Shown here: positions 10,827 to 61,744 of the stretch, one piece after another
How the letters are laid out: every line of letters starts with the position of its first letter
How positions within the stretch are numbered: the first letter of the stretch is position 1
Assembly: GCA_035650735.1 (NCBI GenBank)
Contig: DASRGZ010000056.1
Coordinates: 1-64,000, forward strand
Direction of reading: 5' to 3'
Source: Chthonomonadaceae bacterium
Lineage (GTDB): Bacteria > Armatimonadota > Chthonomonadetes > Chthonomonadales > Chthonomonadaceae
Length of the DNA stretch: 64,000 nucleotides
Translations under genes and position numbers: made by a program
The notes under the pieces: generated by a model
Told to the model about the DNA's origin: nothing
Seen by the model: only the letters and a program-made list of their open reading frames with translations
The model's database searches: none

Positions 10827-10931
10827 GATTCGATTTCTCCTGTATTCCTAGATACTCCCAGCCGTGCAACTCCCTCTCAAGCGGAGTGTCACCGATAGGA
10901 AGCGCCAACACCGTTGGGAGGGATTATCTAA

Positions 10932-11032
10932 CTCAAGTTGCTACCTTGCCTCTTCGAGAAGGCAAACGGTGATGCAAAAGCCGGTTTCCAGAGCGATTCT
11001 CTCTCAAACGTGTTCCTAGGTAGCAACTTGGG
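10932..11032. mobile_element. 101-bp MITE, copy 1 (IS4-family ISPepr1-like ends)
   Basis: TIRs CYCAAGTTGCTACCT; perfect 8-bp flanking duplication TTATCTAA; identical inverted copy at 29343-29443. Confidence 0.9.
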
Positions 11033-11233
11033 TTATCTAATCTTGAATGCGCCGCACCTAGAGCGTGGGATGCACTTGGGTCCTCTTGAGGAGATAGGCC
11101 AGCCGCTCATTAGAGGCTTGGTGCTCGCTTTTTAGCGAGCCCAAAGCGGTCATCAGCCTCCAAGTCCTCTCTCGAAGCAGGCAAAAAAGGGCATAACACC
11201 CTCTACGGACGCGGCGGCCTTTTCGCGGATTGG

Positions 11234-22751: not shown

Positions 22752-22845
22752 GAGCGATCAGGCCCACTGACAATCCTGCCCGTGTGCCTTATCCGGCTTA
22801 ATCATCTGGATTATCTGCGGGAATGCGTCGCCCTCTCCTGGCTCA

Positions 22846-22954
22846 CCTAACCCCCCGTCCCCCTTCCCTACTCGCTCGTTCCTCGCTAGGGAAGGGGGTG
22901 ACCCGGCTTCTGCTCTCCCCTCTCCCTCTAAAGGAGAGGGTCCGAGGTGAGGGC
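22846..22954. repeat. Two-hairpin palindromic repeat (near-minimal form of the composite family)
   Basis: cctaaccccccgtcccccttccct-loop-agggaaggggg...cccggcttctgctctcccctctcc-loop-ggagaggg...gtgagggc. Confidence 0.9.
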
Positions 22955-29322: not shown

Positions 29323-29342
29323 CTCTTTATTCTTTTATCTAA

Positions 29343-29443
29343 CCCAAGTTGCTACCTAGGAACACGTTTGAGAGAGAATCGCTCTGGAAACCGGCTTTTG
29401 CATCACCGTTTGCCTTCTCGAAGAGGCAAGGTAGCAACTTGAG
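29343..29443. mobile_element. 101-bp MITE, copy 2 (inverted)
   Basis: Exact reverse complement of 10932-11032; flanks TTATCTAA/TTATCTAG. Confidence 0.9.
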
Positions 29444-29772
29444 TTATCTAGTCTTTATTCCTATATCTAGCCGGAGCCGCCCGTCGCGCCGCAGCGGATG
29501 TCCGGCAGCCTCTCACACAAGTTCTTCCTGTGTCCCCCCTTCCCCCACAAGCGAAGGGGAACGAGGGTTAGGAAACCGAATGAAATCCACCGGCGGCAGA
29601 GCCGCACTTAACGGTGCGGCTCTGTCTCAACTCACACCCTGGCAAGGTGTTATTCAACCATCAGATTCGCGCGTAAACCTTTTTTTCCTGCTTGAGTACG
29701 ATATTTCAGTAGTATTTTGGTTGGATTTTTTCGGTTGTGCAATTGCCTGAATTGAAGTAAAAAAACGGCCCA

Positions 29773-46852: not shown

Positions 46853-47083
46853 CCCCCCGGCCCCCTTCCCTACTCGCTCGTACCTCGCTAAGGAAGGGGG
46901 GACCCGGCTTCTGCTCTCCCCTCTCCCACAGCGTGGATCGCCAGGCGGAAGGCTGTCGCGAGGCGGAGCGCTGTCGCGAGGCGGAGGCGCGAACTATTGC
47001 AGCGCCGACCCTGGCAGTCCATTGTAGGCCCGACCCTGGCAGTAGGGGGACAGGGGGTGAGGGCCACAAGCCGGGGGGTTAGG
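46848..47083. repeat. Composite nested palindromic repeat
   Basis: cctaaccccccgg...ccggggggttagg ends; internal modules shared with 60533-60813; contains the TAA of the upstream gene. Confidence 0.92.
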
Positions 47084-53146: not shown

Positions 53147-53317
53147 CCCCTCATCCCCGGCCCTTCTCCCTCCAAGGGAGAAGGGAGAGGAGAAGCCAGG
53201 GTTTGCCTCTGTCTGCGTAGGTAGAACGTTCCGCCCACGCAGGTAGGCGAGACTCTCTGCCTGCGCAGGCAGGCAGCGGGCCGCAGGCCCCACAGCGGCA
53301 GGGTTTAGCCTGCCGGG
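53147..53317. repeat. Palindromic repeat cluster (CCCTC hairpin plus REP-like module)
   Basis: ccctcatccccggccccttctccc-gggagaaggg; 53257-53317 matches 60545-60605 inverted at 53/61 nt. Confidence 0.8.
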
Positions 53318-57572: not shown

Positions 57573-57617
57573 TCCCCCTCTCCCGCAGCGTAGGAGAGGG
57601 GGACAGGGGGTGAGGGC
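57573..57617. repeat. Single-hairpin CCCTCACCCC repeat
   Basis: Near-identical inverted copy at 58403-58446. Confidence 0.85.
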
Positions 57618-57642
57618 CATAGGGTCGGGGACGTCAGGTAAA

Positions 57643-58260
57643 CTAACGCTTGAGTGCGTCGTAGCGCTTGCCGACCTCGTCCCAGTTGACGACGTTCCAC
57701 CAGGCGGCAAGATAGTCCGGACGGCGATTCTGGTACTTCAGGTAGTAGGCATGCTCCCACACATCCACGCCGAGGATGGGATTCTTGCCTTCCATCAGCG
57801 GATTATCCTGATTGGCCGTGCTGATGACCGAGAGGTTGCCGTTGTTATCGGCGACGAGCCAGGCCCAGCCGCTGCCGAAGCGTTTTGCGCCCGCATCGTT
57901 GACCTGCTTTTTCAGGGTTTCGACATCGCCGAAGGTGGAATTAATGGCCTGGGCGAGCGCGCCGGTCGGCGTCTGGCTGCCGCCAGGCCGCATGATCTCC
58001 CAGAACATCGTGTGGTTGATATGGCCGCCTCCATTGTTGCGGACTGCGGTGCGGATGTTCTCCGGCACAGCGTTGAGGTTGGAGACAATCTCCTCGATGC
58101 TCTTGTTAAAAAACTCCGGCGCCTCCTTCAGAGCCGCGTTCAGATTATTGACGTAGGCTGCGTGGTGCTTATCGTGATGCAGATGCATCGTCTCCTCATC
58201 AATCGTCGGCTCCAGTGCATTGTACGGATAGGGCAGCGGTGGCAGAGTAAATTCTGGCAT
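57643..58260 (-). CDS. sodA: Superoxide dismutase (Mn-type signature)
   Basis: [32 protein letters not shown]. Confidence 0.95.
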
Positions 58261-58402
58261 TGCGAGGTTCTCCTTCCTGGGATAGATTGACGGGGCGTAT
58301 TCGTCGCCCTCGCACAATTAACAGTTTACCGCACAGAGCGCGGTTTTTCTGCCTGTACAAAAGAGCAGGAGCGTGAATCAGAGCGAAGCTGATTTGAAAA
58401 TC

Positions 58403-58446
58403 GCCCTCACCCCCTTCCCCTCTCCTACGCTGCGGGAGAGGGGAGA
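58403..58446. repeat. Single-hairpin CCCTCACCCC repeat
   Basis: gccctcacccccttcccctctcctacgctgcgggagaggggg. Confidence 0.85.
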
Positions 58447-58570
58447 GGCATTGTCCTGCGAGAGGGTGACCCGAAGGGGCATGGAAGGCTGTTGTGAATG
58501 GAGCGCCGATTTTTGGCGGTGGAGAAGAAGGAGCGCCCTGAGCTTGGATCGCACTGGAAAGAACAGTATC

Positions 58571-59641: not shown

Positions 59642-59709
59642 TTTTGTGCCTGTTCCCCGCTTGTCCAGGATTCTATCTACTTAGCAACCTGGCCCCCTAC
59701 TGCAATGGG

Positions 59710-61653
59710 CTAACTTTGCGCCTGTTTCCAACTTGCATCTATCAGGGCAGCATAAGCGGCGTTATAACCGGGCGCGCCGAACACGCAGCCGCCGGGATGC
59801 GCGCCGGAGCCGCAGAGATAAAGGCCCGCGAGCGGCGTGCGGCCCTCCGCGAAGCCGCGTATCGGGCGCGCGTCCCAGAGATTGGGAGGCAGCAGATCGC
59901 CGTGAAAGATATGGCCCCCGGTCAGGCCGAAGCGAGCCTCCAGGTCGCGCGGCGTGAGCACCTGACGGTGAAGGATCGAGCCGGGGACGTTGGGCGCATA
60001 GCGGCCTACGATCTCGATCACACGGTCGGCAAACTTTGCGCGCTCGTCATCCCAATTCAGGCCAGGCGCAAGATTATAGGGGAAATACTGGACGAAGAGC
60101 GAGAGAATATGCTTGCCGGGCGGCGTCAGGCTGGAATCGGTAGCCGTCTGCAGATAAATCTCGATCATTGGCTCGGTAGAAGGATAGCCCTTCCGGGCCT
60201 CCTCCCAGGCGCGCTCCAAATAGTCCATATCCGGGCAGATATGGATAGTGCCCAGGTGCTCCGGGCCGGGCAGGCTGCGGTCTGCACGGGCCAGGAGACA
60301 GCTAAACTCCGGCAGTTCCGACACAGCCAGGTTGATCTTGGCCGACGCGCCGCCCTGCCGGACCAGCGCCTGCCAGGGGGGATCGCTCCCTGCCGCCTCT
60401 ATCGGAAAGCTCTCGCCGACCAACCGGACGAACGTACGGTAGGGATCAGCATTGGAGAGGACAACCGGCGCATATATCTCCTCCCCACTCTCCAGCGCAA
60501 CGCCGACGACCCGGCCCACTTCCTGGGTGTGACCTAACCCCCTTCCCGGCAGGCTAAACCCTGCCACTGTGGGGTCTATGGCCCGCTGCCCACCTGCGTG
60601 GGCAGTGGCAAACCCCGACTTCTGCTCTCCCCTCTCCCTCAGCGTGGATCGCAAGGCGGAGGGCTGTCGCAAGGCAGAGCCGCGAGCCGTTGAGCGGCGT
60701 CCCTTGCAGTCCGTTGAGGCCCGACCCTGGCAGTAGGGGGACAGGGGGGGAGGGCCACTCCCCTCTCCTTTAGAAGGAGAGGGGACGGGGGTGAGGTCTT
60801 CTGAGGTGAGGGCAGGTTGTTCCACCAGCACGCGCCCGACCGGCGCGCCGAGACGTATCTGGCCGCCGTAGTCCTGCAGGGAGCGCGCCAGCGCCTGTGT
60901 GATGCGGCCCATGCCACCCCGCACATAGCCCCACGCGCCGCGCCGCCCCAGAATGTTCCCCAGGTAATGATGCAGCAGGACGTAGGCTGTGCCCGGCGTG
61001 GAGGGACCGCCATACGTGCCGATGAGGCCATCGGTGGCAAGGACGGCCTTCAGCCGCTCGTTCTGGAACCGGGCGTCCAGCAGATCGCGAACGCTGCCCT
61101 CCAGGAAGGCGGTATAGAGGTCCTCCCTGCCGCGCGCTGCGAACGCCTCGCGTAGCTGCTCCGGATCGGGCGGTGGAGAGGCCAGCCAGAGCTCGATATC
61201 CGCATTGGGCGGCGGGGATAGCAGCCAGGGTTCAATAACCTCCGCTGCCAACTCCACATCCGCCTCAAACCGGAAATAAGCCTCCACGTCGGCAGGCGTC
61301 TCCCGACAGAACTGCTCTAACGCGGCGCGCGTGCGTCCGGCATCCGGGTACAGGAACAGGTAACGGCCATCGAGATACGGCGCAAATCCGGAAGTCTCCC
61401 GTGGATAGACTTCCAGCCCATATTTCTCCAGCTCCAGGTCCCGCACGATCTCGGGCCGCAGCAGACTGCAAAGATAGGCCGCCGTCGAAACCTGATAGCC
61501 AGGCCAGACTTCTTCCGTCACGCACGCGCCGCCGACGATCTCCCGCCGCTCCAGCACGAGAACGCGCCAGCCTGCCCGCGCCAGATACCCAGCGGCGATC
61601 AGCCCGTTATGCCCGGCCCCGATGACGATGGCGTCATAATCCCAGGAAGTCAC
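59710..61653 (-). CDS. Phytoene desaturase-family FAD-dependent oxidoreductase with ~100-aa repeat-derived insert
   Basis: IGAGHNGL, GGACVTEE, GGMG, TPRDLE, GGHIFHG, GSGAHPGG. Confidence 0.9.
   Translation of the reverse strand: MTSWDYDAIVIGAGHNGLIAAGYLARAGWRVLVLERREIVGGACVTEEVWPGYQVSTAAYLCSLLRPEIVRDLELEKYGLEVYPRETSGFAPYLDGRYLFLYPDAGRTRAALEQFCRETPADVEAYFRFEADVELAAEVIEPWLLSPPPNADIELWLASPPPDPEQLREAFAARGREDLYTAFLEGSVRDLLDARFQNERLKAVLATDGLIGTYGGPSTPGTAYVLLHHYLGNILGRRGAWGYVRGGMGRITQALARSLQDYGGQIRLGAPVGRVLVEQPALTSEDLTPVPSPSKGEGSGPPPLSPYCQGRASTDCKGRRSTARGSALRQPSALRSTLRERGEQKSGFATAHAGGQRAIDPTVAGFSLPGRGLGHTQEVGRVVGVALESGEEIYAPVVLSNADPYRTFVRLVGESFPIEAAGSDPPWQALVRQGGASAKINLAVSELPEFSCLLARADRSLPGPEHLGTIHICPDMDYLERAWEEARKGYPSTEPMIEIYLQTATDSSLTPPGKHILSLFVQYFPYNLAPGLNWDDERAKFADRVIEIVGRYAPNVPGSILHRQVLTPRDLEARFGLTGGHIFHGDLLPPNLWDARPIRGFAEGRTPLAGLYLCGSGAHPGGCVFGAPGYNAAYAALIDASWKQAQS
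60533..60813. repeat. Composite palindromic repeat inside a coding sequence
   Basis: Shares modules with 46908-47067, 53257-53317 and 22846-22954. Confidence 0.92.
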
Positions 61654-61678
61654 TTTTATCTCTCCCGAAAACTAACCA

Positions 61679-61744
61679 GACAAGAACGACGGGATGAGCG
61701 GGGCTACATAGATAGAAACCCTGCTCATCCCGTTTTATCCTGTC
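61679..61744. repeat. Degenerate inverted 9-mer hairpin
   Basis: acgggatgagcggg ... cctgctcatcccgt. Confidence 0.65.

Follow-up and report, generated by a model that had tools for sequence, protein, structure and literature searches.

The analysis revealed a 100-codon insert, built of nested palindromic repeats, in the open reading frame of an FAD-dependent oxidoreductase. We consider it quite probable that this stack of non-coding repeats, situated in frame at a beta-turn, is translated as a tolerated loop of predicted disorder, and that the enzyme which carries it still works. The view that the host enzyme is functional and under selection had been put forward in a preliminary description of this DNA, and it is supported by the absence of changes at 163 strongly conserved positions, by the finding of five in-frame and no broken insertions of the repeat super-family in an orthologue-anchored census, and by a bias of the inserted peptides against hydrophobic residues.

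The process envisaged is as follows. Copies of the repeats would occasionally enter genes, and purging would eliminate those which break the frame, carry a stop codon, disturb the fold or give rise to a sticky peptide. Only in-frame, hydrophilic inserts at permissive loops would survive.

The insert and its host protein

The window (the whole stretch of 64,000 nucleotides that was analysed) corresponds to contig C56 of a 6.52 Mb draft assembly (63% G+C, 224 contigs, 97.6% complete). The closest named homologues of the oxidoreductase are labelled Chthonomonadaceae (Armatimonadota). A nearly identical sequence of the region 59700-61700 (0-1 differences over ~1.9 kb) is present in 2017 soil and 2024 mine metagenomes from three studies. 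The gene and its insert comprise the following features (unstranded where no strand is assigned):

59710..61653, minus strand: host gene, an FAD-dependent oxidoreductase of the phytoene-dehydrogenase-like (CrtI-fold) group; ORF of 647 aa whose AF2 model matches 4rep/4dgk
61159..61236, minus strand: older 39-nt tandem duplication (+13 aa, residues 140-165) in the oxidoreductase gene, separate from the repeat insert
60520..60819, minus strand: repeat-derived in-frame insert of 100 codons, residues 279-378 (from blastn repeats, homologue turn length, pLDDT and RNA fold)
60760..60797, plus strand: module T1, an intact BoxC/triplex-motif-type unit, read as DLTPVPSPSKGEG (from sequence; TM-like match at 60775)
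60614..60756, plus strand: module T2, a second TM-type unit, its purine arm split by the S stack (from comparison with the intact unit 57575-57619)
60646..60733, unstranded: module S, a small self-nesting hairpin repeat, copy within copy (224 module matches in the genome)
60545..60612, unstranded: module M1, a third repeat unit with an 8-bp palindrome, read as QRAIDPTVAGFSLP (186 module matches)
60530..60545, unstranded: inverted terminal arm pairing with the T1 end (from RNA fold and end-pair count)

The host protein possesses both an N-terminal GxGxxG dinucleotide motif and a CrtI-like fold, its AlphaFold2 model matching 4rep with E 9.5e-23 and a TM-score by target of 0.82. Its earlier assignment to the phytoene desaturase family holds for the fold and the phytoene-dehydrogenase-like group, but not for CrtI as defined by the curated TIGR02734 (phytoene desaturase) cut-off (91.8 vs 238.1 bits). 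The score against CrtO was also below the cut-off (234 vs 1000), and both values are lowered because the insert splits the alignment, which is one way in which repeat loops can confuse annotation. The tandem duplication falls where distant homologues run 11 aa longer.

Translation of the 101 codons at 60517-60819 is exactly as first written, free of stop codons and frameshifts, and the reading frame used is the only stop-free one of the six. The turn between two anchor residues comprises 16 aa in 86 of 120 homologues and 116 aa in the studied oxidoreductase, so that the net gain is exactly 100 aa (an alignment gap of ~95-100 aa had been predicted). A 4-nt direct repeat, GGAA (60820-60823 and 60520-60523), which may be due to chance, bounds the insert. 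Genome-wide blastn with the insert region produced 1,079 matches over 60531-60811 and no more than 3 per sampled position outside. The similarities to other parts of the window that had been pointed out were largely recovered: 60614-60758 matches 46903-47067 (reported as 46908-47067) with 80.6% identity, and 60545-60605 matches 53257-53317 in inverted orientation (86.9%). The resemblance of the insert ends to 22846-22954 is only partial, since 22916-22940 fits 60761-60785 and 22902-22928 fits an inner piece, 60614-60640.

The AlphaFold2 model (based on an 86-sequence alignment) has pLDDT of at least 90 at 428 of 647 residues, and confidence remains high in the strands on either side of the insert (E272-278 and E381-387). 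Residues 297-374 have pLDDT below 50, as expected for any stretch without alignment depth, so this value is not in itself proof of disorder. The oxidoreductase fold is thus predicted to be intact and the loop disordered. The two flanks of the insert adjoin each other in CrtI 4dgk, in a strand-turn-strand arrangement with which the site aligns, and the site is therefore a surface beta-turn, as had been supposed.

Insertions recur at this turn: among the 120 homologues, besides the 86 with the 16-aa turn, eight others hold unrelated inserts there (+69, +49, +47, +26, +23, +20, +17 and +14 aa). Two of these, in our reading, may contain peptide words like those of the TM unit. The +69-aa insert, in protein P0005, encodes a peptide resembling a different palindromic repeat. 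The +14-aa insert (L233) resembles a decayed purine arm plus third strand and may be repeat-derived, although it failed the TM test. In the orthologue of the same-genus genome G001 a related hairpin begins a few codons upstream of the site, at the point where the contig ends. Of close homologues in which the turn is long, a metagenome scan detected no more than two.

The genome contains 1,625 repeat loci, 1,078 of which form one super-family of co-occurring modules. The insert is nested and multi-module, as originally proposed, being composed of T1, T2, S and M1 together with the inverted terminal arm. T1 has a three-part architecture: a 10-bp pyrimidine/purine hairpin (60760-60784), a 3-nt loop and a mirror G-rich third strand (60788-60797). 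By this architecture, as read from the sequence, the main unit is of the BoxC/TM type. It departs from the strict TM(ECO) consensus (CCCTCNCCC-N3-6-GGGNGAGGG-N3-GGGNGAGGG), as T and A replace the inner C and G; strict matches number 5 genome-wide. There are 426 TM-like units in the genome, all within the super-family, and 0 in a shuffled genome. A conserved GTAG/CGTC tag at the hairpin foot was not found: although CGTC can be read on the coding strand of T1, the loop concerned is ACG in only 15 of 277 units.

The ends of the insert pair, i.e. the terminal inverted repeats characteristic of MITEs are present, and the genome carries 110 inverted end pairs at most 520 nt apart, with variable spacing. 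As for target-site duplication, another MITE feature, the 4-nt GGAA is found here and none was common to the 40 pairs examined of the 110. The consensus of the repeat ends is weak beyond the end motifs.

Other abundant families are also stacked at one site in the window (10848-11205 and 29339-29446; ~86 nt, 140 loci; ~115 nt, 74 loci; ~149 nt, 40 loci). Two intact TM-type units (57574-57619 and 58402-58458) bracket the gene 57643-58317, which we take, by eye, to encode an Fe/Mn superoxide dismutase.

In-frame copies elsewhere in the genome

Further in-frame copies, for which a search had been suggested, do exist. A codon-model scan identified 30 super-family loci that lie in an open frame and have flanks of coding character; removal of four short matches resembling ordinary coding sequence left 26, ten of them orthologue-confirmed. 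About 26 of the 1,078 super-family loci (2.4%), the studied insert included, therefore lie in frame within genes. The studied insert is less singular than had been implied: it is one of about 26, and not the largest.

The hosts include LigA, PurL, KdtA, PrmC, a UvrD/PcrA helicase, GlnE, RqcH/NFACT, HpnI, an M16 peptidase, and RND and ABC transporters, with ligA, purL, kdtA, prmC, glnE, rqcH and hpnI present in single copy. The largest insert seen (~149 aa) is that of kdtA/waaA (G000:C176:8919-9345), and purL contains one of ~71 aa. In LigA (G000:C104:13264-13500), a variable loop within the adenylation domain contains ~90 residues of repeat origin. LigA is an essential enzyme. A search of the 97.6% complete genome found no ATP-dependent ligase, and the insert-bearing LigA is therefore the sole ligase found. 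The genes ligA and kdtA are better test cases than the oxidoreductase, which is the least informative of the hosts because it is dispensable. The LigA loop holds the word QPSLGLF, similar to QPTLDF of a relative and reminiscent of a clamp-binding motif. In smc (G000:C59:53410-53453), a copy belonging to a different repeat family lies in frame; it is short and is read as RHGGTEDTQR.

The chance that a copy is in frame and stop-free under neutrality, estimated from intergenic copies, is 0.04-0.15 at these lengths. For an unbiased census, the flanks of 1,625 loci were mapped onto 2.4 of the 5.3 Mb of a relative (G022). Five super-family copies were found in frame and none broke a gene, whereas among the other families 0 copies lay in frame and 4 broke genes (Fisher p = 0.008). 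The latter, which break genes by a stop codon or frameshift (G000:C102:14958, C114:26236, C115:16632 and C182:14568), show that the census was able to detect broken genes. Three further apparent gene-breaking copies (C69, C79 and C82) were explained by shadow frames, antisense to the genes and running across their boundaries, and an apparent in-frame copy at C216:15486 was dropped, its net insert being zero. Ten “broken” cases found de novo were all operon junctions on inspection.

The peptides encoded by the inserts differ from those which intergenic copies could encode. In 12 of the 15 in-frame inserts that reach 120 nt or more, no other of the six frames is as low in hydrophobicity as the one in use, and the latter ranks first at 8 of the 9 loci offering another open frame (p = 0.002); when only the same strand is compared, it is first at 4 of 5 loci (p ~0.08). 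These frame statistics are partly non-independent, since the inserts share ancestry, and n is small. Compared with length-matched open frames of intergenic copies, the in-frame inserts have a lower mean hydrophobic fraction (0.149 vs 0.219; 0.209 and 0.201 in two strand-matched controls), a lower net charge (0.032 vs 0.092) and a higher Pro/Gly/Ser fraction (0.453 vs 0.357), with 0 of 20,000 resamples in each comparison. This composition points to inserts that are translated and filtered at the protein level. The tolerance rule so described (loop site, open frame, low hydrophobicity) is measurable, and for protein engineering the repeat loops indicate sites that are permissive to insertion.

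Selection on the host and alternative explanations

The alternative which survives best, and which we nevertheless regard as unlikely, is that the insertion crippled or knocked out a dispensable oxidoreductase whose frame is open by chance and which has not yet decayed. Only 14 of 40 relatives yielded a close match to the gene, so the oxidoreductase is dispensable at the level of the lineage, and a neutral gene could survive by chance. Moreover, the insert is large, lies within the FAD-binding domain and is of recent origin: it has 3 private changes over 276 columns and departs from the family consensus at 7 of 206 columns, and only ~0.6 nonsense changes are expected since insertion. Against this stand the prior for an in-frame, stop-free copy of the studied length (~0.037), the use of the least hydrophobic of the six frames, and the tolerance of +47 to +69 aa at the same turn in three other homologues. 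In the protein itself all strongly conserved residues are kept: there are 0 mismatches at the 163 columns conserved in at least 90% of 119 homologues (median of the others 3).

The dN/dS of the flanks, which had been recommended as a further check, is indeed low (0.07-0.19 against seven relatives). On the terminal branch it is 0.29 (a branch not flagged as long, in a tree obtained by quick search from 60 of the 120 homologues). These values mostly predate the young insertion, however, because dS to all relatives exceeds 1, and they speak for the history of the gene more than for the period since the repeat arrived. For the latter period, the private changes in the insert lead to an expectation of ~3.5 neutral changes at the conserved columns; none was seen (P(0) ~0.03), which, if repeats mutate at the genomic rate, as the test presumes, modestly favours constraint on the oxidoreductase.

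It is very improbable that the insert is removed or skipped, whether by RNA splicing, by ribosomal bypassing between two GAA codons or by protein splicing. The insert RNA folds better than shuffled sequences (z = -2.7), in nested hairpins with the two ends paired, and matching GAA codons lie on either side of it; yet no significant Rfam family was recognised (each of 7 covariance-model matches scored well under the gathering threshold, the best having E 0.2) and no stop codon follows the putative take-off codon. Inteins begin with Cys or Ser and end with His-Asn, followed by Cys, Ser or Thr. Such ends are absent here, where the insert opens with Q and closes with E-V, and there is no intein Pfam match. 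Removal would also leave both the stop-free inserts and their least-hydrophobic bias unexplained, and a filter acting on peptide chemistry is hard to reconcile with splicing out or skipping.

Recruitment of the insert peptide for a function (binding, localisation or regulation) is no more credible. The words DLTPxPSPxxGEG and PTAAGFSLP recur in several hosts, and the pooled pN/pS is 0.63; this ratio, however, does not differ from that of intergenic controls (p = 0.21), the hosts are unrelated and the frames differ. The seven consensus differences of the studied insert comprise 1 synonymous and 6 non-synonymous changes, and its peptide has a single match among 1.84 billion representatives. There is thus no sign of selection on its amino-acid sequence, and the peptide would appear to be a passenger. 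Across the inserts, the leading motif occurs in each of the three frames (8, 6 and 3 times), and purine arms are read as GEG (22 times), RG (12) and ERG (6). No significant preference of the first hairpin for the GEG frame was detected (p = 0.058), and the module spacing of intergenic copies showed no bias towards multiples of three (17, 22, 17).

The least probable explanation, that mis-assembly placed or reshuffled repeat DNA in the oxidoreductase gene, draws on the repeat-rich nature of the draft and on the fact that the whole insert lies within no contig of four runs, yet both junctions are bridged in public data. Logan contigs of all four runs (from three studies; one run is possibly the source) cross the junction at 60517 by at least 119 nt and that at 60819 by 50 nt, both with 0-1 mismatches. 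The bridging pieces cover 60520-60669 and 60770-60819, the inner length being that of the assembly, and no join skipping the insert (an empty allele) was found among the contigs of the four runs.

Known repeats, origin of the composite and candidate mobilisers

The preferred reading, a non-coding repeat stack translated as a tolerated loop, has precedents. Rickettsia palindromic elements (RPEs) in frame within genes were reportedly described by Ogata and colleagues in 2000 and 2002 and by Abergel and colleagues in 2006. The super-family studied here behaves in an RPE-like manner, as had been proposed, being found both between genes and in frame in unrelated conserved genes. According to two reviews, RPEs are palindromic non-coding repeats which are intergenic as well as in frame in unrelated conserved proteins; they are single units of ~105-150 bp encoding a conserved peptide, and nearly half are located in genes (PMC10969869, PMC2229807). 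An RPE-bearing guanylate kinase is reported to be expressed and active (PMC2229807). In contrast, the inserts described here are nested composites of at least three unit types, up to ~450 nt long, read in several frames and with 2.4% of loci in genes. They lack the single conserved peptide in one frame that is a feature of RPEs and are by description set apart from them.

For Opitutus terrae, Thauera and others, Di Nocera et al. 2013 (PMC3733652) describe GTAG/CGTC REPs which form in-frame dimers or clusters encoding 43-82 aa, including cases in DNA ligase and UvrD helicases. Small palindrome clusters in frame within genes, these two hosts among them, are thus common to both systems. The present repeats differ in having no conserved GTAG/CGTC tag, in their larger inserts (100 and ~149 aa) and in their Russian-doll nesting, and the accessible part of PMC3733652 contains no test of selection on frame or peptide. 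By analogy, the insert would work like an RPE or an intragenic REP cluster, yet it is a member of neither family.

The BoxC/PIT/TM(ECO) repeat consists of a C-rich stem, a short loop, a G-rich stem, a 3-nt loop and a second G-rich mirror strand. In E. coli MG1655, according to Holder et al. 2015 (PMC4666352), it is always found between genes and shows no link with mobile elements. The three-part architecture, the inverted pairs and the hundreds of copies are shared with the TM-like units of this genome. The latter differ in that T1 has a compensated T-A pair in its 10-bp stem, and in that these units occur in frame within genes, host other repeats and, in relatives, flank DUF559 genes. A literature search (with subscription journals and supplements outside its scope) found no report that places BoxC-type repeats next to DUF559 or, in frame, within genes.

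In-frame repeats are among the few documented bacterial routes from non-coding DNA to new peptide sequence. Here a repeat type described as intergenic is found in genes, including that of the sole DNA ligase found. The locus adds size and nesting and, taken with the other in-frame copies, a filter on frame and peptide that can be measured; the size range given in the available text of PMC3733652 (to 82 aa) is extended to 100-149 aa.

The preliminary description held that the stack grew within the oxidoreductase gene while keeping the frame. This may be so, but the same nested core and module order also occur between genes: the T2-S core is found there at 88-95% identity, and the full T1-S-T2-M1 order is present at an intergenic locus on contig C66. 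Moreover, the kdtA insert shares its first ~180 nt, almost exactly, with that of the oxidoreductase. The oxidoreductase insert may therefore have been pre-assembled or copied in, and on these sequence comparisons we lean slightly towards a composite that arrived or was copied as a block. Stepwise nesting inside the oxidoreductase gene is a real possibility too, because in other homologues this turn holds shorter inserts, and because the modules are nested.

The likeliest candidate for mobilising BoxC-type ends, judged from gene neighbourhoods, is a small DUF559 nuclease (PF04480). Twenty short loci of relatives were considered (from 30, after omission of 10 weak or long-frame matches). A TM-like unit lies within 250 nt of 13 of the 20, and on both sides in 5; for random positions, with one repeat-poor genome as the control, the values are 0.8% and 0%. 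One stand-alone DUF559 gene (G007:C58:1240-1563, L219) is bracketed by units 86% identical to T1, and another (G001:C584:583-897, L210), also bracketed by TM-type units, has a flank 98% identical to 22845-22900 of the window. Searches of the studied genome itself yielded no stand-alone DUF559 gene, its only PF04480 match being in a 1,561-aa frame, and none of 43 candidates proved to be a repeated small gene between neighbouring repeat copies.

A wider proposal can be offered only tentatively: BoxC/triplex repeats might be non-autonomous partners of DUF559 which serve as landing pads for other repeats and so build loops of 50-150 residues in essential enzymes such as DNA ligase, Kdo transferase and PurL, in the least hydrophobic frame only. 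If true, the landing-pad reading would make this genome a natural, quantifiable experiment in the birth of disordered protein from selfish DNA.

A RAYT was also considered as mobiliser of the insert's modules; the two RAYT loci tested had no blastn match to the insert. The Y1 transposase family (PF01797) is represented by 3 matches, one of them flanked by a sub-family which co-occurs with the super-family. Two RAYT-like Y1 genes (C166:80092-80433, L201, and C166:12640-12873, L202) are each flanked on both sides by a palindromic family of their own, and the second of them appears to be frameshifted.
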